Below are positions 2,520 to 48,880 of a stretch of 64,000 nt of DNA, in pieces; position 1 is the stretch's first letter, and every line of letters starts with the position of its first letter. The stretch covers positions 102,093-166,092 of the forward strand of contig JAAYXB010000027.1 of the NCBI GenBank assembly GCA_012516125.1. The letters are read 5' to 3'. The position numbers were made by a program, and so were the translations under genes. The notes beneath the pieces were generated by a model. It ran no database searches, was not told where the DNA came from, and saw only the letters and a list, made by a program, of their open reading frames with translations. Source of the DNA: Bacillota bacterium (lineage in GTDB: Bacteria; Bacillota; SHA-98; UBA4971).

Positions 2520-3209
2520 CTAATCCCCCCGTTCGATTATGGTTATGTTGGCGAGCTCAAGTCCCAGGCACCTTGCCACGATGTCCCCGATTTGCTCGGC
2601 ATCGGACCGTGTCAGCTCGGGCCCTGACACAACCACATCGCAGGTGTCGCCGCGCACAAACACGAGAGCGTCCTTGTAGCCTCTCGCGCGTATGAGCGCT
2701 TCTGCCTCCGCCTCGGCCTCGGTCTTCTTCGACAGATCCACAAGCTGCGTGCTGGCAGCGGCCCGGGCCTCCTCGGACGCCCTTTCGTCGGCTATGATCT
2801 GCCGGAGAAGCTCGATATCCCTGGACCGCGCGCGACTGCGCTCAAGGCGGTACTCAGAAAAGAAGTCTTCACCGGTGACATCGGCGCCTGCCACGGTCGC
2901 GCCATTCCCCGTCGGCGCAGTGGCGGCCCGCTGGGTCGGGGTTTGCGCCGGTGTTGGGGTAGCCGTCCCTGCCTGAGTCTGGCTCTGGACCCCGGTCCCA
3001 GGGCCGGCATGTGTGGCAGCGGGCGAGCCACCGCCTGCCGAGCCACCGCTTCCCGTGGCGGCCGGCTGCGCATCGCCGCCTGCTGCGAGATCGATCCCCT
3101 TTTCCAGCGGCGCCTGGACATTCCTCGTGCCTATGAGCACCCCCAGCACCACCGCGATCACCACCATCAACGCGAAACCAGATCTCGCCCTGTCCTTCAT
3201 GAGCGTCAC
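2520..3209 (-). CDS. spoIIIAH: stage III sporulation protein AH
   Basis: N-terminal signal-anchor, then an acidic linker and a C-terminal YscJ/FliF-like region (EAEALIRARGYKDALVFVRGDTCDVVVSGPELT). Last gene of the spoIIIA operon, as in Bacillus. Confidence 0.8.
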   Translation of the reverse strand: MTLMKDRARSGFALMVVIAVVLGVLIGTRNVQAPLEKGIDLAAGGDAQPAATGSGGSAGGGSPAATHAGPGTGVQSQTQAGTATPTPAQTPTQRAATAPTGNGATVAGADVTGEDFFSEYRLERSRARSRDIELLRQIIADERASEEARAAASTQLVDLSKKTEAEAEAEALIRARGYKDALVFVRGDTCDVVVSGPELTRSDAEQIGDIVARCLGLELANITIIERGD

Positions 3210-3892: not shown

Positions 3893-4609
3893 CTACCCAC
3901 GCACCTCGACAACAACGGGGATGTCTCCCGCGAGGCCGTAGAAATCCCGTACGGCGCGCTCCACCCGTGCCGCGAGCACGGTCTCCGCCACGCCCTCCCC
4001 GTCCGGGGCATCCTGGTCTGCGACCATGCCCGCGCCGTTGCCCTGTTCCTGCCCGTGCACCTGTCCCTGTCCCTGTCCCTGTCCCTCTCCCTCTCCCTCT
4101 CCCCCTCCCCCTCCCTTTCCCTGTCTTTGCCTCTGGTCGCTACCGCGTTCGCCTTCGGGGGAACGAGTTTGCCAGCGGGCTGAGGTGACCCGCACGACCA
4201 CGCGGATTCCGGATAGATCCCCCGAAGGCGCCAGGTCCACCCGGGCGTCCACTGCCTCAGCACCCGAGGCGAGGCGAGCGAGGGACTCGACCTGTCTTTC
4301 GAGGCGTGTGCGGACGTCCCGGCTCGCTATCTCCAGCCCGGCCTGGGCTATCCTGTTCCCTTCTGCCGCGTAGTCATGCCGCCCGCCGCCTGCAGCTTCG
4401 GACAGGTCCGGAATCGAAGGCGTTGCGAGAGCCTCCTCCACAGAGGAAAGGTCCACGAGGGACCCCAGGATGATCGCCACCAGCACAAGGCCGATGACGA
4501 CCCTCGCGAACTTGCGGAGATCGTTCCGTGGAAGCAGCATCTCCGCGAACGCGAGGATGAGCGCCATGACCGCGAGATCCCGCACCCACCCGGATATGGC
4601 GTCTATCAT
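3893..4609 (-). CDS. spoIIIAF: stage III sporulation protein AF
   Basis: Two N-terminal TM helices (MIDAISGWVRDLAVMALILAFAEMLLP...) as in SpoIIIAF, operon position. Carries a GEGEGQGQGQ low-complexity insert encoded by a hexanucleotide tract around 4040-4140. Confidence 0.75.
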   Translation of the reverse strand: MIDAISGWVRDLAVMALILAFAEMLLPRNDLRKFARVVIGLVLVAIILGSLVDLSSVEEALATPSIPDLSEAAGGGRHDYAAEGNRIAQAGLEIASRDVRTRLERQVESLARLASGAEAVDARVDLAPSGDLSGIRVVVRVTSARWQTRSPEGERGSDQRQRQGKGGGGGEGEGEGQGQGQGQVHGQEQGNGAGMVADQDAPDGEGVAETVLAARVERAVRDFYGLAGDIPVVVEVRG

Positions 4610-4636: not shown

Positions 4637-5872
4637 CTACCTCATCGCGGCCGTCAAATTGGCAAGGCCGGCCACCACGGTCATGGCCGCGATGAACGCG
4701 AACGCCGACACGGCCAGGGACACAAGGACCATGACGAGCGTGTTGCCAAGGGCCCCGAGGCAGCGCGCCAGCTGCTCGTCGCCCATGGGCTGCACCACAG
4801 CGCCGGCTACTTTGTACATGGCCGCCACGGCGAAGATCTTCGCAGCAGGGACCAGACATATCATGAACACCCCGAGAAGACCGACCACCGTAAGACCGCT
4901 CTGGATGAGCACGGAGCAGCTTGCGACCATGGCGACGGCGTCGGAGAACATCTTCCCGACCACAGGGATGAACGTCCCAGAGACGAACTTCGCCGCCCGG
5001 ATCGACAGGGTGTCGGTAACGGCCGCCCCGACACCCCGCACGGCCATCACACCCACGAACAGCGTCATGAACCCGCCGAGCGCCGCCACTGCCCCATCGC
5101 GCAGGAGGGCCGACAGGCGCGTGAGCTGGACGCGTTCGGTGATCATGCTGGTCACCTCCAGCACCGCCGAGAGGAATATCAGCGGGAACACGAGGTTGTT
5201 CACGAAGCCGCTCGTGGCCCCGGCGGCAGCCACCACCGCGGGGCTCATCACCGCCGCCGACGTAACCCCTCCGGCCGCTGCGAGCAGGGCAAAGAGCAGG
5301 GGCGTTGCGGAGTGGACGAACGAGGTCATCCTGTCAACGGCGGCCGTTGCGGCCCGCGTGGTCACGAGGAAGCTGTTTATAGCCATCACAGCCAGCACCA
5401 TGAAACACGCGGCCCGGGCGATCCCCGTAGCCTGCTCCGCCCCCAGGCCCGACGCAAACTCCGAGAGCACCGAGCACATCACCGCAAGCACTATGAGCTG
5501 CCCGAGAAGGGCGAGGCTTGCCCGCACTTCGGCTGCGACCAGTCTCACGATACCCGCCGCAATCCTCCCGGGCTCGAGCCGATCCGCCGCGCCCCGCGGT
5601 GCCTTCAGCATTGCGGCAAGGTCGAGCTCGGGGAAAAACTCCTTGACGTCCGCGTCCACGTCCCGCAGGAAGCTTTCAAGGGCTGCCGTGTCCATGGCGT
5701 CCATCTGCGCCCTTACGATGTCGTCCGGGGACGCAGGGCGGCCCGGCTGCGAACCCGAGGAGGCGGCAGCGGCTTCCTGCGCCATGGGGGCCTGGGCTGA
5801 TGTGGTCGCTCTCGCTCCGTCGAGCCATGCGGCGACCGCCAGCATCAGGACCATCAGTAGCGCGACGGACAT
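4637..5872 (-). CDS. spoIIIAE: stage III sporulation protein AE
   Basis: Polytopic membrane protein that aligns along its length with B. subtilis SpoIIIAE (PLLFALLAAAGGVTSAAV..., VTDTLSIRAAKFVSGTFIPVVGKMFSDA). Start set at internal ATG 5872 (MSVALLMVLML signal peptide); the ORF-track N-terminal 54 aa is likely artefact. Confidence 0.85.
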   Translation of the reverse strand: MSVALLMVLMLAVAAWLDGARATTSAQAPMAQEAAAASSGSQPGRPASPDDIVRAQMDAMDTAALESFLRDVDADVKEFFPELDLAAMLKAPRGAADRLEPGRIAAGIVRLVAAEVRASLALLGQLIVLAVMCSVLSEFASGLGAEQATGIARAACFMVLAVMAINSFLVTTRAATAAVDRMTSFVHSATPLLFALLAAAGGVTSAAVMSPAVVAAAGATSGFVNNLVFPLIFLSAVLEVTSMITERVQLTRLSALLRDGAVAALGGFMTLFVGVMAVRGVGAAVTDTLSIRAAKFVSGTFIPVVGKMFSDAVAMVASCSVLIQSGLTVVGLLGVFMICLVPAAKIFAVAAMYKVAGAVVQPMGDEQLARCLGALGNTLVMVLVSLAVSAFAFIAAMTVVAGLANLTAAMR

Positions 5873-6168
5873 CCATGTTACCGCGGGCGCGCGGCCCCCG
5901 GGACCGCGGCATGTCCGCGCCGTCCGTCGAGCTTCCAAGCGGGTCAGACGGGCTACTGGGCGGCGATGCAGGTTTTCTGGGGCAAGCTGTTCGCGCATCA
6001 CAGGCATCCTTTCTGAGCCGGCAGGCTGGCTCAAGGCCCCGCTTCTCGGCCACGCTCCTCCAGGGATCCTCTCCCAGCCACGCCTCCTTTAGAGCCCTTC
6101 CAGGGCGGCAGCCCCTTCGCTTGCCTCCTTGGACCCCGCCAGGACGTCCAGGTTTCCGGCTCGCCAAG

Positions 6169-6841: not shown

Positions 6842-7357
6842 TCAGTACAAGAGAAGGGCTACCATAGCGCCCACGGTCACGCCGAGATACCGCCACATCC
6901 TCGCCATGCGCTCCGCCTCATCCCGCGCTCTGACCTCGTTTGCGCGAAGTCGCTCGCGCGCGAGGGCCAGGTGTCGGAGCTGGTCCTCGGCGCCGCACGC
7001 CCCGAGGGTCTCTCCGAACGCGAGCAGCGCGTCGCGGTCCTCGGGCGCGAGGGCCGACCACGCGTAGACGCGGTGCACCGCCGTCTGCCAGGCTTCGCTG
7101 GGCAGAGGTTCGGAAGACCTGATGAGATCCGCCGCAAGACGGAATATCCGCGTTCCTACGCCACGGCGAGTGCCGTATGCGCGCACCAGGGCATCAGCCA
7201 GCGGCGTCCTCGCGTAGGAAATCTCCGTCTCCAGCACGGCAAGGGCCGACGCTATCTCGGCAAGTTGGCGGGGGCGCTCGGAATAGTTCCTTGCCACTGT
7301 GTTTCCGATGAGGGTGGCGGACCCCACAACAAGGGCCGCGCCGAGGAGCTTCACCAC
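6842..7357 (-). CDS. spoIIIAB: stage III sporulation protein AB
   Basis: VKLLGAALVVGSATLIGNTVARNYSERPRQLAEI... aligns with the B. subtilis SpoIIIAB N-terminus (MLKLLGAVFIVV...YTERPRQIRQL). GTG start at 7357 with GGAGG 8 nt upstream. The ORF-track upstream extension (Gly/Ala-rich) is likely non-coding. Confidence 0.8.
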   Translation of the reverse strand: MVKLLGAALVVGSATLIGNTVARNYSERPRQLAEIASALAVLETEISYARTPLADALVRAYGTRRGVGTRIFRLAADLIRSSEPLPSEAWQTAVHRVYAWSALAPEDRDALLAFGETLGACGAEDQLRHLALARERLRANEVRARDEAERMARMWRYLGVTVGAMVALLLY

Positions 7358-7620
7358 AGGACTCGCCTCCTCACGGCGCTCCACCGGGCCCGGAGTCTCA
7401 GCTGCACCCCCAACCCCAGCTCTGACCGCAGGTCCACGTCCGCTACGACATTCAGCTCTGCCTTCAGCACCAGCACCAGCACCAGCTTCGGCTCTGGCTC
7501 CTGCTCTGGCTCCGGTTCCAGCCGTTCCCAGGCGTGTAACCAGCGGTTGTAGCCGGACCACGCTAGGCAGAGGGTCGCAGGTCTGGCCCGGGGTTGGGCG
7601 TTGCCGCGACTATCCCGATC

Positions 7621-8631
7621 CTACCGGGAAGAGCGGGCAACCAGGGTCTTCCCACTCCGTAGGTCGAGAACGGTCTCGAGCGTGCCCGGGCCATGGGCGG
7701 AGCTCAGGGTCACCACTCTCTCGAACATCTGCGCCTCGAATAGGCACCTGAGCGCGGGGCGCCTCGCGACGTCTTCCAGCGCCTCCCCGTGGGCCGTCGC
7801 CACGATGCTCACCCCGGCGTTCATGGCCTCTCGGACAGCCACCGCGTCCTCCTCCCTGCCGATCTCATCTGTAACCACGAGATCCGGCGACATGGATCTC
7901 ACGAGCATGATCAGGCCTGCGGCCTTGGGGCAGGCGTCAAGGACGTCGGTTCGCAGGCCCACGGTGTTCTGAGGGACCCCGCCGTAGCAGGCCGCTATCT
8001 CTGAGCGCTCGTCGACGATTCCAACGCGTAGGCCCGCAAGGCCAAGCGACGGGATCCCCTCGCTTGCCTGTCGGGCTATGTCGCGTAAGAGCGTTGTCTT
8101 GCCGCAGCGCGGGGGTGAGACGATGAGCGTGTGGAAGAGACGGTTGCGGGACTTGATAAGGTATGGCATGACCAGGTCAGCCGCGCCCAGCACTTCACGG
8201 GATATCCTGATGCAGAAACCTGAGACGTCCTTGATGACTTTGACGATGCCGTCGTGTACCACAGCTCGCCCCACGATTCCCACCCTGTGGCCGCCCCGCA
8301 GCGTAACGTAGCCCTGGCGGATCTCGTCCTCGTAGGAGTAAACAGACGAGCCCACCATGAGCTGAAGCGCGACGAGCGTCTCCTGGTCGCTGAGGATGTA
8401 GCCTTCGTCCGGCCCGGGTGCGACCCCGCCCCGGGACGAAACGAACACCTCGTCGTCCCCGGCAACCAGCATCACCGGGCGGCCCCGGCGCAGGCGGATC
8501 TCGTGGGTACTCGCAAGCAGCTCCGCCGGCAGCATCTGGATTGCCGATCGCAGCTTGGCGGGAAGGCAGGGCAGGATCTCGTCCACGATCACCTCGTTGA
8601 TCGGCCTTCCGCGTCGTCCTTCCGAGAGCAA
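7621..8631 (-). CDS. spoIIIAA: stage III sporulation protein AA (AAA+ ATPase)
   Basis: Walker A (SPPRCGKTTLLRDIAR) and extensive similarity to SpoIIIAA (GYVTLRGGHRVGIVGR, IVDERSEIAACYGGVPQN, DVLDACPKAAGLIMLVRSMSP). First gene of the operon. Confidence 0.9.
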   Translation of the reverse strand: MLSEGRRGRPINEVIVDEILPCLPAKLRSAIQMLPAELLASTHEIRLRRGRPVMLVAGDDEVFVSSRGGVAPGPDEGYILSDQETLVALQLMVGSSVYSYEDEIRQGYVTLRGGHRVGIVGRAVVHDGIVKVIKDVSGFCIRISREVLGAADLVMPYLIKSRNRLFHTLIVSPPRCGKTTLLRDIARQASEGIPSLGLAGLRVGIVDERSEIAACYGGVPQNTVGLRTDVLDACPKAAGLIMLVRSMSPDLVVTDEIGREEDAVAVREAMNAGVSIVATAHGEALEDVARRPALRCLFEAQMFERVVTLSSAHGPGTLETVLDLRSGKTLVARSSR

Positions 8632-10670: not shown

Positions 10671-12095
10671 TCACCCGCCGTTTTCCTTCTCAGTTCGTGC
10701 TACGGCGTCATCCACGGTCACTATGCGCGGCGTGATGAATATGACCATCTCAGTTTCCTTGGCCTGGACCTTCTTGTTCTTGAAAAGCTCACCTAGGATG
10801 GGGATGTCGCCGAGGATCGGGAACTTCAGCATGCTCTCGATCTCCTCACGCTGAAGCAGCCCCGCGATGGCAAGGGTCTCGCCGTCCCGTACCGTTGCCA
10901 CGAAATCGGCTTCCCTCGTTCTCACGTGCGGGTAACCCTGGGTCTGCTCCTTGCCGAGGATGGACGACACCTCCGGACGGACGTGCACCGTTATGAGGCC
11001 GTTACGGTTGACGCGCGGCGTGATGATGAGCTTTACTCCGGCCTCAATGAAGGACACGCTTTGGCTCGTCTCGCCGCCGCTGGAGCTTGTGATTATGACC
11101 GGGATCTTGTCGCCGATGAATATCCGCGCCTCCGTGCCGTCTAGTGTGGTGGTGCCGGGACGGGCAATGGTGACAGCCTTGCCCGAATCCTCAAGCATCT
11201 TGAGAAAAGGCCCTACAGCGAGCGAAAGCCCAATGAATGCGCCGGTGGTGGGGTCCGTTCTTATATAGACCTTTCCGAACCCGCCGTACTCCCCCGCTTC
11301 CTGCCAGTTTATCCCGTGCTCGTCCAGGGCATCCTTGGCGATTTCCTCAAGGCGAGCGTCGATCCGCACCATGGGGATGGGCACGTCCAGCTTCTCCACG
11401 ACCTTAGCAGCTTCATCGAGTTCCATTTGGGCACCCGAGGCTATGACCGAATTCGTGCGCTCGTCTACCTGGAGTCTGTCGGCGGGGATCACGAGGCTGA
11501 GAGCCTGCTTGATGTCGGCCGGCGAGGAGTAGCTCAGCTTGAACACCCTGGTCTCGACCTTGTCGAAGCCCTCTTTGAAACGTCCGGGGGCGGCAACCAC
11601 GAGGGTGTTGCCGACGTACCTGTAGGCGAGGCCGGTTGCGCGCGTGACAAGCTCTACCGCGTCGGTCACAGGGACGGCCTTCAGGGTTAGCGAGACCTCG
11701 CCCCTCACGGACGGGTCGGCGATGATGTTCACGCCTCCGAGCTCCGCAAGGATCTTGAGGACGTCGCGGATGTCGGCGCCTTTCAGGTCGATCGTGACAG
11801 GGTGTCCCACAGCTCGGGCGGTGCCTGCTATGGCACTCCCTGCAGGTGTCGTCTGTCCCTGTCCCTGTCCCTGTGTCTGTGTCTGCGTCTGCGTCTGTGC
11901 CTGTACCTGTGGCTGTGGCTGTGCCTGTGCTTCTCCCTGTGCACCTGGAGTTGCCTCTGCCTGAGCAGGGCCTTGCTGCTCCGGCTGAACCTGGGCCTGC
12001 GCCTGCGGCTGCTGTGGCGCCGCCAGGCACGCCAGCGTCACTACGAGCACAATCATGAAGGCGACCCGCCTGGTCAGGCGCGGACCGCTTGTCAT
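10671..12095 (-). CDS. pilQ: type IV pilus secretin PilQ family protein
   Basis: Signal peptide, Gln/Thr/Pro-rich low-complexity linker and N-domains. C-terminal secretin domain (GETLAIAGLLQREEIESMLKFPILGDIPILGELFKNKKVQAKETEMVIFITPRIV). Confidence 0.8.
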   Translation of the reverse strand: MTSGPRLTRRVAFMIVLVVTLACLAAPQQPQAQAQVQPEQQGPAQAEATPGAQGEAQAQPQPQVQAQTQTQTQTQGQGQGQTTPAGSAIAGTARAVGHPVTIDLKGADIRDVLKILAELGGVNIIADPSVRGEVSLTLKAVPVTDAVELVTRATGLAYRYVGNTLVVAAPGRFKEGFDKVETRVFKLSYSSPADIKQALSLVIPADRLQVDERTNSVIASGAQMELDEAAKVVEKLDVPIPMVRIDARLEEIAKDALDEHGINWQEAGEYGGFGKVYIRTDPTTGAFIGLSLAVGPFLKMLEDSGKAVTIARPGTTTLDGTEARIFIGDKIPVIITSSSGGETSQSVSFIEAGVKLIITPRVNRNGLITVHVRPEVSSILGKEQTQGYPHVRTREADFVATVRDGETLAIAGLLQREEIESMLKFPILGDIPILGELFKNKKVQAKETEMVIFITPRIVTVDDAVARTEKENGG

Positions 12096-13264
12096 GGTTT
12101 ACCGCCTCCCCCGAGTTCCAGCACGAACTCCTCGCCTTCCTTGATCACGGTGATGGACTTCTCCCCGATGGACTTCACCGTCACGCCTCCGACCTCGTCT
12201 CCGGGCCGCACGATGCTGCTGCCCTGGGGCGTCTTCACTATCGCGTACGCCGAGTCACCGGTGCTGATGATGCCGGTCACAAGCATGAGCGGGGGGTCCA
12301 CGCGCGGCCTCGGCGGGGCAACAGATTCCGGCGGCACGCTCTCGCGGCCGCTCTCTTTGACGGTCAGTGTTCCCTTGCTGGTAGTAGGTGCTCCTGCGGC
12401 TGTGGGGCCGCCGCCCTTGTCCGCCGTTGACGGTGGCTTGGCGGTCCCGGGCTTCCCCGCATCGTTTCCGGCGGACGGCTTCCCCGAGAGAGCCTGGGAC
12501 GGTTCCGACGCCTGGACGGCTTCACCGGCACGTGTGTCTCCCGCGCGCGGGGCGGACTCGCCCGTTGCGGTCTTGCCGGGCTTGTCCACCGGCTCGGTTG
12601 TTCCGGTCTTTCCCACCGGCTCGGCGGCTGCCACACTGCCTTTCTCGCCAGCCTGCGCCTCTTCAGGCGCAGGCTGAGGCGTCGGCGTGGGTGTGGGCGG
12701 CAACTGTGCTACCGTCACAGGCTCCGGGGGCTTCGGCACAGGCGGAGAGGAGGGTTTTGCGTCTTCCTTCGGCTCGGCCGGAGGCTTCTCCTCGGGCACG
12801 CTCGGTTTCGTCGCGGCCTTTGAAGCGTTCTTTGCTGAGGCCGTAGCGATGATCCTCCTGACCTCGTCCGGTCCCGTGTCAGGCTCCGCGCTCATGGGGC
12901 CAGGGCGCCGCCCTTGCGTGCGGTAATACCGTACAATAGAACTGTCCGGGGCAAATGGGTCCTCATCGGACCTTGCAGGAAACGAAATGGCCTCCTCCTC
13001 CTTACCCGCCTGGGTGACGGGGGGAAGCGGCTTCTGAAGCTCGCGCCACTTCTCGGGGATGGCGGGCCGGGTGACAGCCGTCGAGGGCGCCTCCGGCAAG
13101 CTCCTGTCCGCAGGCGGGCGCACAGCCCTCATGCCCACGACGACCGCGGCGGCCATCACAGCAAGAGCGAAGACAGCCACGAACCAGGCCACGGGTTTAA
13201 GTGGCGACTTCGTGCCACCTTGTCTGAGATCCACACGTGTCTTGCCGCCGAAGAGAGGTCTCAT
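12092..13264 (-). CDS. PilP-like pilus assembly protein (proline-rich, N-terminal TM)
   Basis: N-terminal TM anchor and a long Pro/Ala/Lys-rich linker. C-terminal beta domain (LMLVTGIISTGDSAYAIVKTPQGSSIVRPGDEVGGVTVKSIGEKSITVIKEGEEFVL) resembles PilP. Position between pilO and the secretin. Confidence 0.45.
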   Translation of the reverse strand: MRPLFGGKTRVDLRQGGTKSPLKPVAWFVAVFALAVMAAAVVVGMRAVRPPADRSLPEAPSTAVTRPAIPEKWRELQKPLPPVTQAGKEEEAISFPARSDEDPFAPDSSIVRYYRTQGRRPGPMSAEPDTGPDEVRRIIATASAKNASKAATKPSVPEEKPPAEPKEDAKPSSPPVPKPPEPVTVAQLPPTPTPTPQPAPEEAQAGEKGSVAAAEPVGKTGTTEPVDKPGKTATGESAPRAGDTRAGEAVQASEPSQALSGKPSAGNDAGKPGTAKPPSTADKGGGPTAAGAPTTSKGTLTVKESGRESVPPESVAPPRPRVDPPLMLVTGIISTGDSAYAIVKTPQGSSIVRPGDEVGGVTVKSIGEKSITVIKEGEEFVLELGGGGKP

Positions 13265-13833
13265 CTGCCACCCCCACCCTTTGGCACCACGTATAGGACC
13301 ATCGAGAGCGTCGCATCCAGCGTTTGCGCCCTTCCCGCATCGCTCGTCCCCCGTGGGGCAGTGAGGCGGACGCCTCTCACGCTCATCGCTCGCCCGAGGG
13401 AAAGAAGCTTGTCAAGGAATGTCTTCACCTGTTGATAAGAGCCCTGGACCTCTATCGTGAAGGGAACCTCAGCATAGGGACTGGAGGAGGACAGGGATCC
13501 GAGGGAAAGGGACACCACAGCCACTCCGGAAGCGGATGAGACGCGGTCCAGATCCCTCAGGAAGTAGGGTATGCCTGTTTCCCTTGTTACCATAGAATCG
13601 ATCGCCTGGAGGGCCTTCAAGGCCTCTTCATACTCCACCCGCAGGCTCGCGAGGGTCTCGCCCTTCTCGGCGATCGACCCGATCCTGCGGCTTATGAGGT
13701 CAAGACGTTGGGAAAGGTCCGCGGCCTCGCGCGATATGGGCGAAAGGACGTACGCATAGAACACATAGCCCGCAAGAGCCAGGCCCACGGTCAGGACGAG
13801 GATGTATCTCGGCATCTGGCTTCGGCTGCTCAC
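13261..13833 (-). CDS. pilO: type IV pilus assembly protein PilO
   Basis: N-terminal TM, coiled-coil, then a PilO-like fold. Operon position after pilN. Confidence 0.6.
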   Translation of the reverse strand: MSSRSQMPRYILVLTVGLALAGYVFYAYVLSPISREAADLSQRLDLISRRIGSIAEKGETLASLRVEYEEALKALQAIDSMVTRETGIPYFLRDLDRVSSASGVAVVSLSLGSLSSSSPYAEVPFTIEVQGSYQQVKTFLDKLLSLGRAMSVRGVRLTAPRGTSDAGRAQTLDATLSMVLYVVPKGGGGR

Positions 13834-14384
13834 GGCTTCTCGCCTCCTGTGCGAGAGAGCGTCGCCTGCGCCTGAAAGGCGAGCAGCCCTTCATTCTCGC
13901 CGGCCCTGCCAGTGCGAGCCAGGCGGACGTCGTCGAAAAGATCCGAATCCTCAAGGGCTAGCATGAGTGAGGCCACGGCCTCGAGCGACGCCGCCTCTCC
14001 GTCTATCATCGCCTTGCCGTCGTCTGCAAGGGTGAACTGCACCAGGCGCACGCCCCTGGGAAGGAGACGCGAAAGGTCGCCTAGGATCTCCTGCGCCGGG
14101 AGACCGCCCTCAACCTGTTGCGTGGCTGCGGCTAGCCTTGCCAGCACTTCGTCCTTGCTCTTGCGGGTCTCCTGGATATCGTGGTCGAGCCAGGCATAGC
14201 GGGCGTAGTCCTCCTCTTGCGCCTTCAGAGAGCGGCGCAGGTCTGCGACCTCCTGCGCCTTCACCACGTAGAGAAGGACGGCCACGAGCACGAAAGCGCA
14301 CACCGACGCTGCCGCCACTATCCGCAGGGCGCTCGTCCTGGGCGGCTTCGGTAGCCCTGGCGGCAGCAGGTCAACGCCTTTCAA
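13830..14384 (-). CDS. pilN: type IV pilus assembly protein PilN
   Basis: Single TM plus coiled-coil plus periplasmic domain (LKGVDLLPPGLPKPPRTSALRIVAAASVCAFVLVAVLLYV...). Start assigned to a TTG at 14384 that overlaps the pilM TGA stop, with GGTGGAGGA upstream. The ORF-track N-terminal 83 aa is likely artefact. Confidence 0.6.
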   Translation of the reverse strand: MKGVDLLPPGLPKPPRTSALRIVAAASVCAFVLVAVLLYVVKAQEVADLRRSLKAQEEDYARYAWLDHDIQETRKSKDEVLARLAAATQQVEGGLPAQEILGDLSRLLPRGVRLVQFTLADDGKAMIDGEAASLEAVASLMLALEDSDLFDDVRLARTGRAGENEGLLAFQAQATLSRTGGEKP

Positions 14385-15553
14385 GAGTCCTCCACCCCCC
14401 GCAGCGCAAGCCCGATTGCAACCGAAAGCGACGGCCCGTGCGCAGCGAGCACGTCGGCGAGGCGATCCGTCTTCGCCGGGGATGCGTTCTTCAGCGGGTT
14501 CCCGGGGCTCACCGCCACGCCGAGGCTGCTCTCGAGGAACTCGGCCAGCCCTGCGAGCCTCGACCCGCCGCCGGTGAGTATGACCGAGGCGATGGGCGCG
14601 TCCGCGCCGCGCCTTGTCCTCGCCTGGGCGTTGCAATAGTCGATAGACCGCCTCAGCTCTACGGCAAGCCTCGCTGCAACGCTGGCGAGCGCCTGCTCGA
14701 CAGCGCCATCCTCAGAAGCGGCGTCGTCCACCAAGGCGCCACCGGCTACCGCCGTAGAGGACGGCACCGGCACACGACACCTGCGCTTGGCTGTCTCCGC
14801 CCAACCCGCGCCGCGGCCCGTAGCCTCGGCCACGGCGGCTGTGAAGTCGTTCCCACCTATGGGAACGATCCGCGTGAACCGAAGCACGCCGCCCTCGGAG
14901 TAGGCGAGGTCGGTGGTCCCTCCTCCGATGTCCGCACAAAAGGCCGAGGACTCGGCGTTGCCGTCGCGGAATACGCGGTCCAGCGTGATAGGCTGGATGT
15001 CGAGGGCCAGCGGGTACAGCCCCGCAAGCTGCATGGTCTCGACATGGCTCTGCACGAGCTTCTTCGGGGCGGCCACGATCATGACCTCGATCTTGTCGGG
15101 TGAGCCCGCCGGGGAGCCGACGATTTGGAAGTCTATGCTCGCGTCTTTCGCAGGGTAGGGGATGTACGCCCCCGCGTCCCACTTCACCGCCTGGGCAAGT
15201 TCCTCCCTTGGCATGCGGGGGAAAAGCGCATGCCTCACCACGACATCGTCGCCTGCGATGGCAGCGTATACCTCGTTGGATCGGATGCCACCCGCGCGCA
15301 TGGCCTCCTTCACGGCGGCGGCGACCTTCGGAGGGTCGAGGACGCTCCCCTCGGCGACCGCGCCTTCGGGCGTGGGATGTACCCCGGCGCGAGTTATCTC
15401 GACCGCGCTCTTTGTTTTCGTGATCTCGACCACCTTGATGAGGGTGGTCCCGATGTCAAGCCCCACGGCGCGCTTCGCGCCGCCGAACGGAAGAAGCGGG
15501 CTCAGACGACCGCCTCCTTTCGAAGCATGAACCCTAATACTGGGCCGCCACAC
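14381..15553 (-). CDS. pilM: type IV pilus assembly ATPase-fold protein PilM
   Basis: Actin-like PilM (VGLDIGTTLIKVVEITKTKSAVEITRAGVHPTPEGAVAEGSVLDPPKVAAAVKEAM). Start uncertain by about 20 codons. Confidence 0.8.
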   Translation of the reverse strand: MWRPSIRVHASKGGGRLSPLLPFGGAKRAVGLDIGTTLIKVVEITKTKSAVEITRAGVHPTPEGAVAEGSVLDPPKVAAAVKEAMRAGGIRSNEVYAAIAGDDVVVRHALFPRMPREELAQAVKWDAGAYIPYPAKDASIDFQIVGSPAGSPDKIEVMIVAAPKKLVQSHVETMQLAGLYPLALDIQPITLDRVFRDGNAESSAFCADIGGGTTDLAYSEGGVLRFTRIVPIGGNDFTAAVAEATGRGAGWAETAKRRCRVPVPSSTAVAGGALVDDAASEDGAVEQALASVAARLAVELRRSIDYCNAQARTRRGADAPIASVILTGGGSRLAGLAEFLESSLGVAVSPGNPLKNASPAKTDRLADVLAAHGPSLSVAIGLALRGVEDS

Positions 15554-15790
15554 CTGAAACCATTCTCAAAAGTCGGGAGCGTCTTCGTACGGGACTGTTG
15601 AACTCCGCCAGCAGCTACCCGTTTAGCCCGGCACGGCGACGGTTTTGGGCGATTCGGCCCGGTCATCGTGACACGATGTGGGAACCATCAACAGTCTCTT
15701 ACTCCCGTACTTACTGCTGTGCTACACAGGCAAAGGAACCTGGAAGACGTCACCAAACCGGGAAATCGGCGCAGACTGGTGCTCCCACGC

Positions 15791-16612
15791 TTAGAACCCC
15801 GCCTGGCCAAGCCACGGGAACACGAGACGCAGTACCCAGGTCCCCGAGATACACACGATGATCGCTCCCGCCGCAATGAAAGGCCCGAACGGGATCTCGT
15901 CCTTCCTCTTCTTAAGGCCTGCGACGATCAGCCCGATCCCGACCGCCGCGCCGATGAAGCACGCGACCATGAACGACGCAAGCCCGCCCCACGGCCCGAG
16001 AAAGCTCCCCACGAGCGCCATCAGCTTGACATCTCCGCCGCCCATGCCCCCGCGGCTCAAGAGGGCGATGAGGAACACAAGCCCTCCGCAGGCAAAAAGT
16101 CCAACGATGCGCATCGTAACCTCGCGGAGGCCCCCGAGCGCCCCTGCCGCCACGCCCACCGCCATCCAGGGAAGCGTAAGCCTGTCGGGGATCACCCCAT
16201 GATTGAGATCGATCCCCGCCGCAACCACGACCAGGCTCGCCAGCACCAGGTAGTTCAGGGTCCAGACAGTGGCTCCGCGGCCTACCACGATCAAGAGAAA
16301 AATGAGCCCAACGCCGACCTCCATGGCAGGGTAAGAGATGGATATCTTCTTTCCACAGTGGCGACACCTGCCCCGGAGGAGCAGGTAACTCAGCACGGGC
16401 ACGAGCTCGAGCGGCCCGAGCGTGGTCCCGCATTCCGGACAGTGGGATCGCGGCGACACGACCGACTTCCCACGTGGGAGACGGCGAACACACACGGTGA
16501 GGAAGCTTGCCACGATTGTTCCCGCAAGAAACACTAGCAATGTTCCGATGGGCGACGTACCTCCATACGACAAAGGAACAGGGATTTCCCATTGCGCATG
16601 AGATGCTGCCAA
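15791..16612 (-). CDS. pilD: prepilin peptidase (A24 family)
   Basis: N-terminal CPECG...CRHCG zinc-finger motif followed by a polytopic peptidase domain (GGGDVKLMALVGSFLG). Track start is a TTG; true start uncertain. Confidence 0.85.
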   Translation of the reverse strand: MAASHAQWEIPVPLSYGGTSPIGTLLVFLAGTIVASFLTVCVRRLPRGKSVVSPRSHCPECGTTLGPLELVPVLSYLLLRGRCRHCGKKISISYPAMEVGVGLIFLLIVVGRGATVWTLNYLVLASLVVVAAGIDLNHGVIPDRLTLPWMAVGVAAGALGGLREVTMRIVGLFACGGLVFLIALLSRGGMGGGDVKLMALVGSFLGPWGGLASFMVACFIGAAVGIGLIVAGLKKRKDEIPFGPFIAAGAIIVCISGTWVLRLVFPWLGQAGF

Positions 16613-16936
16613 AGCACCCTGGACTCCAGGCTCCTGCGGTCAGGTGATCTCTTCGCTACAAAGCCAGAACGAGTTTGACGTTCAGCGTGATACCTTATGA
16701 CAAGGCGACAGAGCATCCCCAGGCCGCAGGAGCGAGCAGAGTCAGGATAGGCGCGTAAAACTCGACGACTGAAAGCTACCTCTTCCCAAGCCTCTCAGAC
16801 AATAGCCACTCGAGTTGTCAGGACAGATGCTACGGACGTGACGCGTTTGCCAATCCGGCACATCATGCGTCCGCGAATGATTCCCGCAACGCACGCACAT
16901 CCCTGTAGGCTACGACTCCGGCTGTTTCGGCTCTCG

Positions 16937-17329
16937 CTACTCACCAGCACCACAGGATGCACAATGCACGCCGGTCACGTTGCCCTCGTCGTCCTCGTCA
17001 AAGACGTAAGCGGTTGCGCCCTCGTCGCCCGTCACGGGGCACTTAGGCAGTTCTCCTGTTTCCAGATAACCCGCTAGCTGCTCAACGCTGTCCGGGTCTT
17101 TGCCGTTGTCAACTCGGTACAAATCGATCAGCCGCTCCAGTGTCTGCACGTTTGCCTCACATGCTTTCTTCTTTGCTGCTTGAGTGACTTTCGAGAAACT
17201 TGGTACCGCGATTGCAGCTAGGATTCCGATAATGGCAATGACTATAAGCATCTCTATCAGGGTGAAGCCTCGCCTATCGCAAACTACCCGATGGACAGCC
17301 TTTCTCACACGCATGCCTAATTCCCTCAC
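16937..17329 (-). CDS. type IV pilin (prepilin with class III signal)
   Basis: Leader ...CDRRG followed by FTLIEMLIVIAIIGILAAIAVP, the N-methylation site and hydrophobic helix. GTG start at 17329 with GAAAGGAGG 9 nt upstream. Cys-containing C-terminus. Confidence 0.8.
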   Translation of the reverse strand: MRELGMRVRKAVHRVVCDRRGFTLIEMLIVIAIIGILAAIAVPSFSKVTQAAKKKACEANVQTLERLIDLYRVDNGKDPDSVEQLAGYLETGELPKCPVTGDEGATAYVFDEDDEGNVTGVHCASCGAGE

Positions 17330-17439
17330 TGCAAATGGCCTCCTTTCTGTACTTCACACTGCGTTCCATAGGAATTGTCCCAACCTTCCGGTATCGCCCC
17401 CCTTGCGAGACTACAACATGTGACGCTATGTGACGCTCG

Positions 17440-18663
17440 CTATACGGCCTGCACCATCCTGAACATCGGCAGTATCACCGACGCCGCCACGAGGGCCACG
17501 CACAGGCCCAGGAACACGATGACGACGGGCTCTATCAGGCTCGTTAGCGACTTTATGCCCCGGTCGACTTCCTGCTCGTAAAACCCCGCCAGCTTCGTAA
17601 GCAAGCTGTCCAGGGCGCCGCCTTCCTCGCCGACTGCCATCATCTGCGTGACGACCGGTGGGAAGATCCCTGCCTGCGCCAGCGGAAGAGCGATGCCCGC
17701 GCCCTCCCTCACGCCGGACCGCACCTGCCGGAGGCCCATGGCGATGTGGCTGTTGCCAACGACTCTCTCGACGACCTCAAGGCTCTGGAGGATCGGGACG
17801 CCCGCGGCCACAAGGCTTGCTAGTGTCTGGGCGAACCGCACCACGATGACCTTCTCCATGAACCTCCCGATCACAGGAAGCTTCAGCACAGTCGAGTCAT
17901 ACCAGTAGCGGCCGCGATCCGTCCTGAGCCAGTATCCAACAGCCACCGCTGCGAGCGTCGGCACGCTGAGCACGACATACCACCTGGTCTGGACGAACTT
18001 CCCCACGCCGAACACGATCTGCGTGATCCTCGGCAGAGGGACATCAGACTGCGCGAGTACCTCGACGAACCTCGGGATCACGAACGTCATCAGGATGCCC
18101 ACCACTATCACGGCGAAGCCCGCGACGACCGCCGGGTAGGTGAGCGCGCCCTTGACCCTCTGGCGGAGGTCGTGGTCCTTCTCGTAGTAGTCCGCGAGCC
18201 GCGCGAGCACCTCGTCGAGCCGCCCGGTCACCTCCCCTGCCTCCACCATGTGGATGAAGAGCGGCGGGAACGCGCCTGTCTCGGCAAGCGCGCCCACGAG
18301 CGGGTTCCCGGCGTCCACGCGCGCCTTCGCCGCCTCGAGCACGCGCCTCTCCAGCTTGTTTTCGGCCTGACCTGCGAGCGTGTGCAGGGCGGCCGAAAGC
18401 CCCACCCCCGCCTGCATCATCACGGAAAGGTGCCGCGAGAGCCTCGCGAGGCTCTGGACCTTCAGTCTGCCGCGGACGGCTGGCCGCACCGCAGCTGGCG
18501 TGCTGCCCTCGGCCTCGCCCTTCTCTCCACCGAAAAGCCCCGTCACGAAGAGGCCCTGCGCTCGCAACAGCTCGGCCGCGGCGGCCTCATCGGCCGCCCT
18601 GATGGTGCCCTGTGTCAGACGCCCTTCAGCGTCGCGCGCCCGGTATGTGAATACCCGCTCCAC
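17440..18663 (-). CDS. pilC: type IV pilus platform protein PilC (GspF family)
   Basis: Two tandem T2SSF domains, three TM segments, about 400 aa. Confidence 0.85.
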   Translation of the reverse strand: MERVFTYRARDAEGRLTQGTIRAADEAAAAELLRAQGLFVTGLFGGEKGEAEGSTPAAVRPAVRGRLKVQSLARLSRHLSVMMQAGVGLSAALHTLAGQAENKLERRVLEAAKARVDAGNPLVGALAETGAFPPLFIHMVEAGEVTGRLDEVLARLADYYEKDHDLRQRVKGALTYPAVVAGFAVIVVGILMTFVIPRFVEVLAQSDVPLPRITQIVFGVGKFVQTRWYVVLSVPTLAAVAVGYWLRTDRGRYWYDSTVLKLPVIGRFMEKVIVVRFAQTLASLVAAGVPILQSLEVVERVVGNSHIAMGLRQVRSGVREGAGIALPLAQAGIFPPVVTQMMAVGEEGGALDSLLTKLAGFYEQEVDRGIKSLTSLIEPVVIVFLGLCVALVAASVILPMFRMVQAV

Positions 18664-18679
18664 TCCCGCGACCTCCTAC

Positions 18680-19741
18680 CTACGCGCCCCTGATGAGCCG
18701 CTTGAGCTCGTCCTGGTCCACCGCTATCGTGAGGGCGTCCTCCAGGCTCACCACGCCCTGTTCCACCCACTGCCGCAGGGACTGGTCCATGGTCTGCATT
18801 CCGAACCTCGCCCCGGTCTGGATCACCGACCGGAGCTGGTGGGTCTTGCCCTCACGGATGAGGTTTCGCACCGCTGGCGTCCCAACCATGACCTCCACGG
18901 CCGGCACCCGCCCGGGCTTGTCCTTCCTCGGGACGAGCTGCTGCGAGATCACCGCCACCAGCGTGGCGGCGAGCTGGATCCTCACCTGCTGCTGCTGATA
19001 AGGCGGGTAGACGTCGATTATCCGATCGATGGTCTGCACCGCGTCGCCCGTGTGCAGCGTGGCGAGCACCAGGTGCCCCGTTTCTGCGGCCGTGATCGCC
19101 GTGCTCATGGTCTCGAGGTCGCGCATCTCACCCACGAGGATCACGTCGGGGTCTTCCCGCAGTGCCGCCCGGAGCGCCAGGGCGAACGAGGCGGAGTCCT
19201 GCCCGATCTCGCGCTGGTTCACCATGGCCTTCTTATGTCGGTGCAGGTACTCGATGGGGTCCTCGATGGTCATCACGTGGCAGCTTCGCTCGCTGTTGAT
19301 GAGGTCCACCATCGCCGCAAGCGTGGTAGACTTGCCGCTGCCCGTCGGCCCTGTCACGACGATAAACCCGCGGCTCTTGCGGGCAAGAGTCTCGATGATG
19401 GGCGGAAGGCCAAGCTCCGCTACGGTCGGTATCTCGTGCGGGATGACCCTTATGGCTGCCCCACACGTCCCACGCTGCCGGTATGCGTTCACCCTGAAGC
19501 GCCCCACTCCAGGCAGGCCGTATGAAAAGTCCACCTGGCCCTGCTCCGCGAAAACCCGCCTGTGCTCGTCGTTCATGAGAGCCAGCACGAGCCCTTCGGT
19601 GTCCTGCGGCGAAAGAGGCGTAAACCCCTCGACAGGACGCAGGCTTCCGACCACCCTCAGGACGGGTGGAAGGCCGGTCGTGATATGTAGGTCGGATGCG
19701 CCATTCCCGACAGCTACCTTCAGCAATTCCTCTATTGACAA
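18680..19741 (-). CDS. pilT: type IV pilus retraction ATPase PilT
   Basis: MSIEELLKVAVGNGASDLHITTGLPPVLRV... plus Walker A (GPTGSGKSTTLAAM) and Asp/His boxes. Start set at TTG 19741 with AAGGAGGG 9 nt upstream, overlapping the pilB 3' end by about 10 nt. Confidence 0.85.
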   Translation of the reverse strand: MSIEELLKVAVGNGASDLHITTGLPPVLRVVGSLRPVEGFTPLSPQDTEGLVLALMNDEHRRVFAEQGQVDFSYGLPGVGRFRVNAYRQRGTCGAAIRVIPHEIPTVAELGLPPIIETLARKSRGFIVVTGPTGSGKSTTLAAMVDLINSERSCHVMTIEDPIEYLHRHKKAMVNQREIGQDSASFALALRAALREDPDVILVGEMRDLETMSTAITAAETGHLVLATLHTGDAVQTIDRIIDVYPPYQQQQVRIQLAATLVAVISQQLVPRKDKPGRVPAVEVMVGTPAVRNLIREGKTHQLRSVIQTGARFGMQTMDQSLRQWVEQGVVSLEDALTIAVDQDELKRLIRGA

Positions 19742-21570
19742 GATCGAGCGCCCTCCTTGCCATCCGGCACCGCGCACACCTTTGCAAGTTCCTCGGGCGT
19801 CGTGATCCCCAGAAGCACTTTGCGCGCGCCGTCAACCACGAGCCTGGTCATGCCCGCCTTCACCGCCGCATCCTCGATCTGCTCGGCGGGCGCGGACTTC
19901 ATGACCAACCCCCGGATGTAGTCGTCGACCACCATCACCTCGGCGATCGCCGTGCGCCCGTAACATCCCGTATTCGCGCACTGCCTGCAGCCACGGCCGC
20001 GCCTCAGCACCCTCCCCCGCTCCGCCTCCACCCGGGGCGCCGTGTCAGGCGCGAGCGCGCTCCACGCCGCCCATGTGGTCGGGTCCGCCTCGTACTCCTC
20101 GGCGCAGTATGGGCACACCTTCCGCACCAGCCTCTGCGCCACCACCGCTGTCACAGACGAGGCCACGAGATACGGCTCCACGCCCATCTCCATGAGCCGC
20201 ACGAGCGCCCCCGCCGCGTCGATGGTATGGAACGTGCTCAGCACGAGGTGCCCGGTCATCGCGAACCTTATGGCGATCTCAGCAGTCTCGCGATCCCTTA
20301 TTTCGCCCACCATGACGATGTCAGGGTCCTGCCTCAGGATGGCCCGCAGCCCCGCCGAAAACGTAAGGCCCGCCCTGGGATTCGTCTGTACCTGGTTGAG
20401 GCCAGACACGCGGAACTCCACAGGGTCTTCGATGGTGACAATGTTCTTCTCGGGGCTGTTGAGCTCGTGGAGAGCCGCATAAAGCGTCATGGTCTTCCCG
20501 CTTCCCGTCGGGCCTGTCACGAGCATGATCCCGTTGGGCCGCGCGAGCACCTGGCGGAGGCGCGCCGCATCCGCCTCCAGGAACCCAAGCTCGTCGATAC
20601 GGGTAATGGCCCCCTTTGATCGCAGGATCCTGATCTCGACCTTCTCGCCGTAGAGCGTCGGAAGCGTGGATACGCGAAGGTCGACCTCCTCGCCCTCCGC
20701 TCGTATCTCGACCCGCCCGTCCTGCGGCACCCGCCTCTCGGCGATGTCCATGCCCGCCGTGACTTTGATGCGCGAGGCCACCGCAGGGCCGAGCTCTTTC
20801 GGGAAGGTCATAACCTGCCTCAGGATGCCGTCGACCCTGTATCTCACCCGCACCTGCGACTCCTGCGGCTCGATGTGGATGTCGCTCGCGCGCGCCTTCA
20901 CAGCCTCGGAAATGATGGCGTTCGCGAGCCGCACCGCCGGGGCGCTCATCACTTGCGCGTCGTCGGCGGCCTTTCTCGCCTCGTCAGCCCTGGCCTGCTG
21001 CGCCTTTCCGGCCGCCCCCGCGACTTGGGCCTGGACCTCCTTGACAAGCTTCACGGCGGGGCCGGCGCCGTAGCACTCGGCTATCGCAGCCTCGATCTCA
21101 GCCTCGCTGGCAATGACGGGATCGACCTCGAGGCCCGTGGAGATTCTCACGTCATCGATGGCGAAAACGTCAAGGGGGTCCGCCATGGCGAGGGTGATGC
21201 GGTCGCCGACTCGCTCGATGGGGAATACCTTGTGGGACCTCACGAACGCCTCGGGGAGAAGATGCGCCACTTCCGGATTGATGATGTACCTGGCGAGCTC
21301 GACCCGGGGAATTCCAAGCTGGGTTTCGAGGGCCGTGAGCATGGTGTCCTCATCGATGAAGCCGAGGGAGACCAACACCGAACCCAGCCTTCCGCCTCTC
21401 TCCTTCTGGACGGCAAGCGCCTTATCGAGGTCTTCGTGTGTGAGGACCCCCGCGTCAATGAGGATCTCGCCAAGTTTACGCCTGCGCGCAACAGGCGCCA
21501 CCTGCGTGCCGGGCGCAGCGGCCTCGGTCACTGGTGCACGCCCCGCACCGGCTCCCCCTGCCGTGCTCAT
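19732..21570 (-). CDS. pilB: type IV pilus assembly ATPase PilB (GspE family)
   Basis: N-terminal GSPII_E N-domain, Walker A (GPTGSGKTMTLYAAL) and a C-terminal tetracysteine motif (CPYC...CRQC). Confidence 0.85.
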   Translation of the reverse strand: MSTAGGAGAGRAPVTEAAAPGTQVAPVARRRKLGEILIDAGVLTHEDLDKALAVQKERGGRLGSVLVSLGFIDEDTMLTALETQLGIPRVELARYIINPEVAHLLPEAFVRSHKVFPIERVGDRITLAMADPLDVFAIDDVRISTGLEVDPVIASEAEIEAAIAECYGAGPAVKLVKEVQAQVAGAAGKAQQARADEARKAADDAQVMSAPAVRLANAIISEAVKARASDIHIEPQESQVRVRYRVDGILRQVMTFPKELGPAVASRIKVTAGMDIAERRVPQDGRVEIRAEGEEVDLRVSTLPTLYGEKVEIRILRSKGAITRIDELGFLEADAARLRQVLARPNGIMLVTGPTGSGKTMTLYAALHELNSPEKNIVTIEDPVEFRVSGLNQVQTNPRAGLTFSAGLRAILRQDPDIVMVGEIRDRETAEIAIRFAMTGHLVLSTFHTIDAAGALVRLMEMGVEPYLVASSVTAVVAQRLVRKVCPYCAEEYEADPTTWAAWSALAPDTAPRVEAERGRVLRRGRGCRQCANTGCYGRTAIAEVMVVDDYIRGLVMKSAPAEQIEDAAVKAGMTRLVVDGARKVLLGITTPEELAKVCAVPDGKEGARSCQ

Positions 21571-28758: not shown

Positions 28759-29049
28759 CCCTGTTCCCGCAAAAGGTGCCGGCGCCCGGGCGGCGGCGCC
28801 AGGACGCCACACACTCATTGATATGCTCTTGTCCACGGGATCATGTATCGGGACGGGCGACGCCTTCGCCAGCCTGAGGCCGCGTGTCATCGGTCGAATC
28901 AGGACGACTGACGTACACGAGCAGTCGGCCACGCCTGCTGTCGCCCGGTACCATAATGAACATGAGGGCACCCCACCCTGGACGATGCCGCGTTGACGAT
29001 CGGCTCCGGCGGCCATATACTACACGTGAACGCGTGCGGGGTGAGAGAC

Positions 29050-30927: not shown

Positions 30928-30982
30928 GGGCCGCATCCTCACGCTGCAGCTTGGGCGGCCACATCGTCGCGTTGTCGCATCA

Positions 30983-46626: not shown

Positions 46627-48876
<2,250 letters not shown>

Positions 48877-48880
<4 letters not shown>

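Follow-up and report, generated by a model that had tools for sequence, protein, structure and literature searches.

Hexanucleotide repeat tracts in conserved genes of a spore-forming Bacillota bacterium from anaerobic digesters

Hexanucleotide arrays in the window

A stretch of 64,000 nt from a contig of a Bacillota bacterium (JAAYXB010000027.1, positions 102,093 to 166,092; hereafter the window) was analyzed for short tandem repeats inside conserved genes. The bacterium belongs to a clade of genus level whose members are uncultured, spore-forming Bacillota of anaerobic digesters that possess a secretin. Three genes of the window, spoIIIAF, pilQ and queA, contain hexanucleotide arrays which exceed chance expectation, differ by whole units between close relatives, are absent from distant orthologs and lie in disordered loops or linkers of the encoded proteins. 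The G+C content of the window is 63% and its genes are located almost all on the minus strand. The arrays and their host genes are the following:

3893-4609, minus strand: spoIIIAF, 238 amino acids, Pfam Spore_III_AF PF09581 (E 1.9e-15)
4041-4125, minus strand: hexanucleotide array in spoIIIAF, coding strand (GGAAAG)(GGAGGG)2(GGAGAG)3(GGACAG)4, encoding GKGGGGGEGEGEGQGQGQGQ
10671-12095, minus strand: pilQ-like secretin gene, 474 amino acids, Pfam STN (122-168), Secretin_N and Secretin
11853-11942, minus strand: array in pilQ, (GCACAG)2(CCACAG)2 GTACAG GCACAG (ACGCAG)2(ACACAG)2(GGACAG)3, encoding AQAQPQPQVQAQTQTQTQTQGQGQGQ
11982-12026, minus strand: minor (QA)n run in the secretin linker
47792-48880, minus strand: queA, 362 amino acids, Pfam Queuosine_synth PF02547 (E 2.9e-138, profile positions 2-322 of 322)
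48554-48628, minus strand: array in queA, (GGCGAG)4 GATGAA GGTAAA GGCGAA GGTGAA (GGCGAG)3

Analysis with Tandem Repeats Finder (TRF) revealed three strong period-6 arrays in the window, and all coding tracts are on the minus strand. The array in spoIIIAF (4041-4125) comprises 14.2 copies with a score of 79, the array in pilQ (11853-11942) 15 copies with a score of 75 and the array in queA (48554-48628) 12.3 copies with a score of 71. As a control, the codons of the window's predicted genes were shuffled in 200 replicates and the period-6 arrays were counted by TRF. The three arrays of the window with a score of at least 50 compare with none in the 200 shuffles, where the top score was 42. At a score of at least 30 the window contained 11 arrays compared with a shuffle mean of 2.3. 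A second control consisted of 1.32 Mb of spoIIIA-centred loci from distant Firmicutes and contained a single array with a score of at least 50. This corresponds to 0.08 arrays per 100 kb compared with 4.7 per 100 kb in the window, that is, such arrays are about 60 times rarer in the distant Firmicutes. In L001, a locus of the metagenome-assembled genome (MAG) MAG-64 and the closest species-level relative, 2 arrays with a score of at least 50 were found in 21 kb, the first at the orthologous position in the spoIIIAF loop and the second in the spoIIIAA-spoIIIAB spacer. A rough scan for low-complexity residues gave 2.3-2.9% for the window and its close relatives and 1.1% for the other Firmicute loci; the 2.3% of the window is slightly underestimated (crude gene calls lacking spoIIIAF). 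The genus-level clade of the window is unusually prone to hexamer expansion. Beyond the window, about 3.7 kb of further sequence was recovered by exact-protein look-up.

The host proteins SpoIIIAF, secretin (STN, Secretin_N and Secretin) and QueA were confirmed by Pfam, as was PyrK (DHODB Fe-S domain). No RNA family at Rfam gathering thresholds and no tRNA (ARAGORN) was detected in the whole window. Thus, the tracts are not parts of known RNAs. A first-pass annotation, made from the sequence letters, had described hexanucleotide tracts in these four genes with their coordinates, repeat units and encoded peptides. On re-reading, all of these details were correct and agreed with TRF and Pfam. 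As tandem arrays the tracts were recovered by TRF in spoIIIAF, pilQ and queA; the description does not hold for pyrK, where no clear tandem array is present. A further tract, claimed between spoIIIAA and spoIIIAB, was found again by TRF at 7465-7513. The features around it are:

6842-7561, minus strand: longest open reading frame of spoIIIAB, Pfam SpoIIIAB profile from residue 71
7358-7620, minus strand: spoIIIAA-spoIIIAB spacer, 263 nt
7465-7513, minus strand: two short hexanucleotide arrays, (GGTGCT)3-4 and (GGAGCC/AGAGCC)
7621-8631, minus strand: spoIIIAA (Pfam)

The first of these arrays (7465-7486) consists of 3.7 copies of CAGCAC with a TRF score of 44, the second (7490-7513) reached scores of 32-46. 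Both are most likely non-coding, since the SpoIIIAB profile starts late in the reading frame and a GGAGG motif (7366-7370) stands 8 nt upstream of GTG 7357, an arrangement which is also present in L001. An N-terminal (GA)n extension of SpoIIIAB starting from GTG 7561 was considered and is less likely, because the Pfam profile begins only at residue 71, GGAGG and GTG 7357 are conserved, and the upstream peptide is not conserved and contains a stop codon in L002. A role of the spacer as structured RNA or attenuator was rejected. Neither a sigma-70-like promoter nor an intrinsic terminator was found in the spacer, and its RNA fold was not significantly better than those of shuffles (z = -1.76). 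The expanded spacer was seen only in the clade of the window, L001, L002 and L003, and more distant relatives have a much shorter one. In L001 the spacer harbors another array, (GTTGGA)5.8, at another position. An array which most likely lies in a non-coding spacer and which differs in L001 points to a process that acts on DNA whether coding or not.

Length variation and structural setting of the tracts

Tract lengths were compared between assembled contigs. The insert of QueA, the tRNA preQ1(34) S-adenosylmethionine ribosyltransferase-isomerase, is a (GE)n-type tract and comprises residues 86-108 (window 48557-48625). Proteins of the 90%-identity cluster of QueA are 348, 356, 358, 360 and 362 amino acids long at 93-99.7% identity, and the differences of 2, 4, 6 and 14 residues are all located within the (GE)n tract. 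The window has 11 units, L084 (MAG-64) has 9 units (12 nt fewer), and L081, L082 and L083, which represent three separate assemblies or samples from a Japanese biogas fermenter, have 4 units. The tract of the latter is exactly (GGCGAG)4, and DNA alignment revealed an in-register 42-nt deletion precisely between two (GGCGAG) blocks. In flanks of 3-4 kb on either side of the tract, L081-L083 exhibit 99.5-99.8% nucleotide identity to the window. Consequently, the 42-nt difference in queA is strain-level variation. The 348-residue allele (P0019) was found in contigs of three separate assemblies or samples.

Among the 120 nearest QueA cluster representatives the great majority are insert-free proteins of 341-342 amino acids, and the longer ones that were aligned have 4-6 loop residues. 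In relatives at 81-87% identity the same loop holds a G/E-rich, non-repetitive insert, which can reach 33 amino acids, and two relatives at 81% identity have no insert. In those aligned relatives whose identity is about 73% or lower, the loop is not extended or is longer by no more than 3-7 residues. Alignment of QueA with the solved structures 1YY3 (E 2.6e-113) and 1VKY from the PDB showed a gap exactly at the insert. Otherwise, QueA matches the family profile and the solved structures over its full length, and the insert is the only gap in the alignment with 1YY3. The AlphaFold model of QueA (m2fa29fc89daa, 52 sequences) has a mean predicted local distance difference test score (pLDDT) of 83.5 and contains strands at residues 77-85 and 109-116, with a pLDDT below 50 at residues 89-105. 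The two strands flank a coil, so that the tract is predicted to form the loop of a beta hairpin in the beta-barrel domain. The non-repetitive inserts of the sister lineages at 81-87% identity suggest that these sites have long been hot spots of insertion and that the repeats now present there are a renewed expansion. Inserts in the QueA loop therefore do not appear to be purely recent.

SpoIIIAF was recognized by its profile match, two N-terminal helices, its domain order and the position of its gene in an operon with the order spoIIIAA-AB-AC-AD-AE-AF-AG-AH. Its tract differs in unit count or unit type in every close relative compared. The window allele has 10 units, (GGAAAG)(GGAGGG)2(GGAGAG)3(GGACAG)4. 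L101 (97.8% nucleotide identity) has 9 units, (GGAAAG)(GGAGAG)4(GGACAG)4, and L102 (about 96%) has 4 units, (GGAGAG)1(GGACAG)3. For L105 (about 93%) 6 units were found, (GGAGAG)2(GGACAG)3 GGACCG, and for L001 (about 94%) 9 units, GGACAA GGACAG (GCACAG)6 GGACAG. One more relative encodes a long series of SQ/TQ/AQ/RA, and in more distant relatives the loop holds unrelated sequence or next to nothing. A single sample (ERZ925058) contained two alleles of 226 and 230 amino acids on parallel contigs.

The AlphaFold model of SpoIIIAF (m2b674a0e92af, 23 sequences) exhibits two N-terminal helices followed by a helix at residues 80-115, strands at 119-126 and 132-140, a helix at 204-224 and a strand at 232-237. 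Residues 147-201 (window 4007-4171) have a pLDDT below 50 between ordered flanks. This model describes an alpha-beta-beta-alpha-beta domain in which the tract forms the disordered loop between beta2 and alpha2. When the PDB was searched by sequence, SpoIIIAF gave only spurious low-complexity matches, so that the fold was assigned from the AlphaFold model only. The order of its elements would match the ring-building motif described for Bacillus subtilis SpoIIIAF, whose structure was not retrieved by the PDB sequence search. Two other proteins of the operon were found to contain comparable regions. SpoIIIAH (2520-3209, minus strand) has the short low-complexity stretches AATGSGGSAGGGSPAA and TATPTPAQTPTQ, and the N-terminal residues of about 1-90 of SpoIIIAE (4637-6034, minus strand) are likewise not conserved among relatives. 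Thus, variable linkers would be common across the spoIIIA operon of this clade.

In the secretin the signal peptide and the N0/STN domain are joined by a linker of about residues 28-95 (window 11811-12014), in which the tract is located. The tract contains 13 XQ units in the window and 6 in the nearest MAG (L001, MAG-64), and further proteins of the 90% cluster show insertions or deletions of QAQA and the like. The length of this N-terminal linker varies among relatives, the more distant of which have a short, non-repetitive linker. The allele of the window was assembled identically on 12 contigs. In the public annotation the secretin start is placed 3' of the repeat (NLG79038.1, 379 amino acids, beginning MGHPVTIDLK; affected window 11811-12095), whereby the conserved signal peptide is lost. 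Similarly, the public PyrK begins at residue 29 (NLG79060.1, 320 amino acids; affected window 37274-37357). Low-complexity N-terminal regions thus seem to mislead start-site calling.

The inserts of pyrK are of a different kind. They are located as follows:

36311-37357, minus strand: pyrK, electron-transfer subunit, DHODB Fe-S domain (Pfam)
36929-37018, minus strand: pyrK insert 1, residues 114-143, GGGGNEGSVGNNSRESEGGNGIGSVGSGSG
36650-36772, minus strand: pyrK insert 2, lineage-specific and hypervariable, about residues 196-236

Insert 1 lies at the junction of the flavin adenine dinucleotide (FAD)-binding and nicotinamide adenine dinucleotide (NAD)-binding domains, and its segment 36929-37018 encodes GGGGNEGSVGNN...GSGSG, as had been described earlier. 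Its DNA contains no clear tandem array; TRF reported only a match of two 9-nt copies at 36937-36954. The insert has the same length in six sequences which are more than 99% identical. The alignment with PDB 1EP3_B steps from residue 107 to 108 across insert 1, and relatives have between 0 and about 33 amino acids there, with unalignable sequences. Insert 2 comprises about 40 amino acids in the NAD-binding domain. Among relatives it varies from 0 to about 70 amino acids, again unalignable; P0156 and P0157 have the inserts of about 70 amino acids, and typical PyrK has none. In MAG-64 the Cys residues of insert 2 of the window are not conserved. Without a tandem DNA repeat and without strain-level length variation pyrK is ruled out as a microsatellite. 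Judged from these alignments, insert 1 is a lineage-specific, older low-complexity insert. Both inserts are best interpreted as low-complexity segments that have decayed or were acquired in some other way, and not as active microsatellites.

The first-pass annotation had expected tract lengths to vary between strains. This was borne out by whole-unit differences in queA, spoIIIAF and pilQ, and did not apply to pyrK with its six invariant sequences. Its placement of the tracts in loops of conserved proteins agrees with the AlphaFold models of QueA and SpoIIIAF.

Origin of the tracts

The tracts are very probably coding microsatellites that arose by replication slippage at codon-homogeneous hexamers and are tolerated only in disordered loops and linkers. 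Within the blocks identical codons recur (GGC GAG; GGA GAG; GGA CAG; ACA CAG). This codon homogeneity indicates duplication on the DNA level and not selection for an amino acid pattern. All tract-length differences observed are whole 6-nt units (QueA with 2, 4, 6 and 14 residues fewer; SpoIIIAF; PilQ). Together, the uniform codons, the whole-unit differences, the 42-nt deletion in queA and the arrays in the spacer argue for slippage or unequal recombination, filtered for disordered sites. Alternating direpeats of two amino acids (polyXY) have been described as hot spots of replication slippage (PMC10652141).

In the proposed mechanism whole 6-nt units would be gained or lost when strands slip and mispair as the DNA is replicated, or when blocks of the repeat recombine unequally. 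With two codons per unit, every length change stays in frame, adding or removing one dipeptide (GE, GQ or XQ). New alleles would survive only where a floppy segment is tolerated, namely in the hairpin loop of QueA, the beta2-alpha2 loop of SpoIIIAF, the linker of the secretin and the non-coding spacer. Sister lineages contain degenerate, non-repetitive inserts at the same sites (the QueA loop, both PyrK sites and the SpoIIIAF loop), which suggests that tracts repeatedly expand, decay through point mutations and expand anew. Slippage as the mechanism, a nearly neutral effect of the length changes and the model of decay were inferred from these patterns.

Several points weigh against this interpretation. 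All comparison sequences are metagenome assemblies, which may mis-assemble repeats, and the spoIIIAF tract of the strain of the window is spanned by one assembly only, the public MAG contig, to which the proteins NLG79030.1 and NLG79072.1 belong. Near-neutrality is an assumption, and the flexible acidic or Gln-rich loops may have a functional role. Finally, a microsatellite origin of the pyrK inserts, in which no repeat survives, is a conjecture.

The slippage interpretation can be extended to a lineage-specific mutational syndrome. Weakened mismatch repair or a polymerase bias, for example, might seed hexamers throughout the genomes of the digester clade, which would decay into lasting inserts of core enzymes (QueA, PyrK) and resemble, in a bacterium, the insert-rich proteome of Plasmodium; the spoIIIAF tract would have become a strong G-quadruplex with a local destabilizing effect on replication and sequencing. 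We regard this extension as speculative and rather doubtful.

Less probable still, with only a slim chance of being correct, is a role of the tracts as tuning knobs or contingency elements under selection, in which length variation is kept for its effect on the behavior of the protein, such as exposure of the secretin surface to phages or SpoIIIA channel geometry. Of the three hosts, two do belong to envelope machines (the secretin and the ring protein SpoIIIAF), and SpoIIIAF differs in every close relative. Simple-sequence proteins of prokaryotes are associated with the cell surface and membrane and, reportedly, negatively with metabolism (PMC1524752), so that QueA and PyrK look like unusual hosts. 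However, similar tracts are present in the cytoplasmic QueA and in a non-coding spacer, and units of 6 nt make on/off switching impossible. Moreover, the unit composition shifts freely between GE, GQ, AQ and TQ, suggesting weak sequence constraint, and the same loops of sister lineages hold unrelated sequence or nothing.

That the inserts represent conserved linkers of ancestral origin instead of expansions, an alternative already named in the first-pass annotation, is very unlikely. Relatives at about 55-87% identity do have inserts at both places, G/E-rich in the QueA loop and G-rich at the PyrK junction, and the PyrK insert is invariant in strains of more than 99% identity. Yet these sites are unalignable between sub-clades, with lengths of 0 to 33 amino acids or more, and typical QueA proteins (341-342 amino acids) and three PDB structures have no insert. 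Ortholog alignment showed that distant orthologs are devoid of the tracts, and near-identical strains differ in tract length. For queA, spoIIIAF and pilQ the linker explanation is already contradicted.

The two remaining alternatives deserve hardly any credence and both concern the spoIIIAF tract, which overlaps with the following motif:

4065-4121, minus strand: G-quadruplex-type motif, 10 runs of at least three G with loops of 1-3 nt on the coding strand (regex scan)

In the regex scan this motif was the strongest of its type in the window, the others having 4-6 runs, and it contains more than the four runs of at least three G with loops of 1-7 nt that define such motifs. The minimum free energy predicted by ViennaRNA for 4065-4121 was -44.6 kcal/mol with G-quadruplexes and -13.4 kcal/mol without. 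G-rich, G-quadruplex-prone DNA degrades Illumina reads. Among the contigs of a strain which is 100% identical to the window (JGI 3300022230 and 3300021045; SRR11032113-116; loci L087-L090 and L097-L100) the four that come from the pilQ side all stop at window positions 4069-4174, and three of the four contigs of the spoIIIAG side begin at 4082-4093. These breaks could result from mixed tract lengths in the population or from poor sequencing of the G-rich stretch; as a sign of a raised indel rate they are no more than suggestive.

The first of these alternatives holds that the true tracts are fixed and that the length variation is an artefact of metagenome assembly or sequencing. The contig breaks indicate a tract that is hard to assemble, and its G-rich, G-quadruplex-prone sequence is in line with this. 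On the other hand, the queA and pilQ tracts of 75-90 nt are shorter than reads of typical length, and the same alleles were recovered from several independent samples (pilQ on 12 contigs, the short queA from three assemblies or samples). Furthermore, all alleles are in frame with whole-unit differences, and the differences accompany flanking substitutions, as in L084 (95%) and L101 (97.8%). The second, a G-quadruplex that would regulate the spoIIIA operon as an element of its DNA or mRNA, draws on the number of G runs, the short loops and the large predicted gain in stability, but the motif is not conserved, with one such run in the L001 allele (GCACAG)6 and four in L102, which makes a conserved regulatory role unlikely and the motif seemingly incidental to GGA-containing units.

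Neighbouring genes and comparison with known repeat systems

The secretin gene belongs to a complete type IV pilus cluster (10671-21570, minus strand), which is located directly upstream of an M24 aminopeptidase gene, efp and the spoIIIAA-AH operon. It comprises pilB, pilT, pilC, a pilin, a prepilin peptidase, pilM, pilN, pilO, a protein of 390 amino acids and the secretin, and its gene order is kept in L087-L092. The presence of a secretin in a spore-former suggests an outer membrane, that is, a diderm Bacillota lineage. The protein of 390 amino acids, encoded between pilO and pilQ (12092-13264, minus strand), has no Pfam match. It contains one N-terminal hydrophobic segment and a long Pro/Lys/Thr/Ala-rich region with two copies of a 27-nt repeat at 12568-12624, and could be a PilP-like protein or a pilotin analogue. 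One further repeat was located in it:

12662-12706, minus strand: (TP)4 repeat in the protein of 390 amino acids, (GGCGTG)3.7 on the plus strand, TRF score 30

The only long gene on the plus strand encodes an RqcH/NFACT homolog (28993-30927). It adjoins a gene for a STAND-like ATPase with two P-loop regions on the minus strand (30983-32272), and the GC skew is slightly positive around 28993-32272. Among the comparison sequences L002 (JBLNCC010000070.1), P0279, P0281, P0031 and P0153 are labelled as Betaproteobacteria, Bacteroidota or Anaerolineae, yet contain the spoIIIA, queA and pyrK genes of the clade; SpoIIIAA of L002 is 88% identical to that of the window. These records are probably mis-binned or mislabelled MAGs.

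The tracts provide strain-typing markers for an uncultured digester lineage. On the practical side, they break assemblies and mislead gene callers. Even in a core enzyme such as QueA, close relatives can have from 4 to 11 copies of a flexible dipeptide in one hairpin loop, all with the frame intact. Hence, the clade offers a natural series for how bacterial coding microsatellites arise, turn over and decay to fixed inserts. Current understanding is not overturned by any of these results.

Long simple sequence repeats (SSRs) with units of 5-11 nt have been catalogued in prokaryotic genomes, and variable number tandem repeats (VNTRs) are used for strain typing. The tracts described here share with bacterial coding SSRs and VNTRs the head-to-tail units, the excess over chance, the whole-unit copy differences and the in-frame units. 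In contrast to these, they reside in core genes of an uncultured environmental spore-former and not in surface or virulence genes of pathogens, and each array is a composite of several variant hexamers. The low-complexity inserts of Plasmodium are Asn-rich and its genome is AT-rich. Like the Plasmodium inserts, those of QueA and of the two PyrK sites are lineage-specific, fast-evolving low-complexity loops in conserved enzymes (PMC5762703), whereas a G/E/Q composition, a G+C content of 63% and a modest scale distinguish the present case.

The tetranucleotide contingency loci of Haemophilus influenzae are also gene-associated, slippage-prone repeats with high allele turnover (PMC2651432, PMC11868660). 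In the present case, in contrast, the unit is a multiple of three and lies inside the frame, whereby the length of a loop is altered and not expression. All alleles of the 6-nt units within the open reading frames are in frame, and the spacer contains no promoter- or terminator-like site. Phase-variable contingency loci are thus excluded because the units are in frame.

The closest description of the encoded peptides is that of the polyXY direpeats. The study of Mier and Andrade-Navarro from 2023 analyzed the human transcriptome (PMC10652141); polyXY regions as such have been described for all domains of life. As in their study, XYXY peptides are encoded by two recurring codons, lie in disordered regions and are proposed hot spots of slippage (PMC10652141); the two-codon alternation is found here together with a pLDDT below 50 at QueA residues 89-105 and SpoIIIAF residues 147-201. 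The present analysis differs in that it concerns a bacterium and compares strain with strain directly. Consequently, the phenomenon is of a known kind, that of coding microsatellites or VNTRs and polyXY direpeats, and what is mildly unusual is its density in the core genes of one clade.

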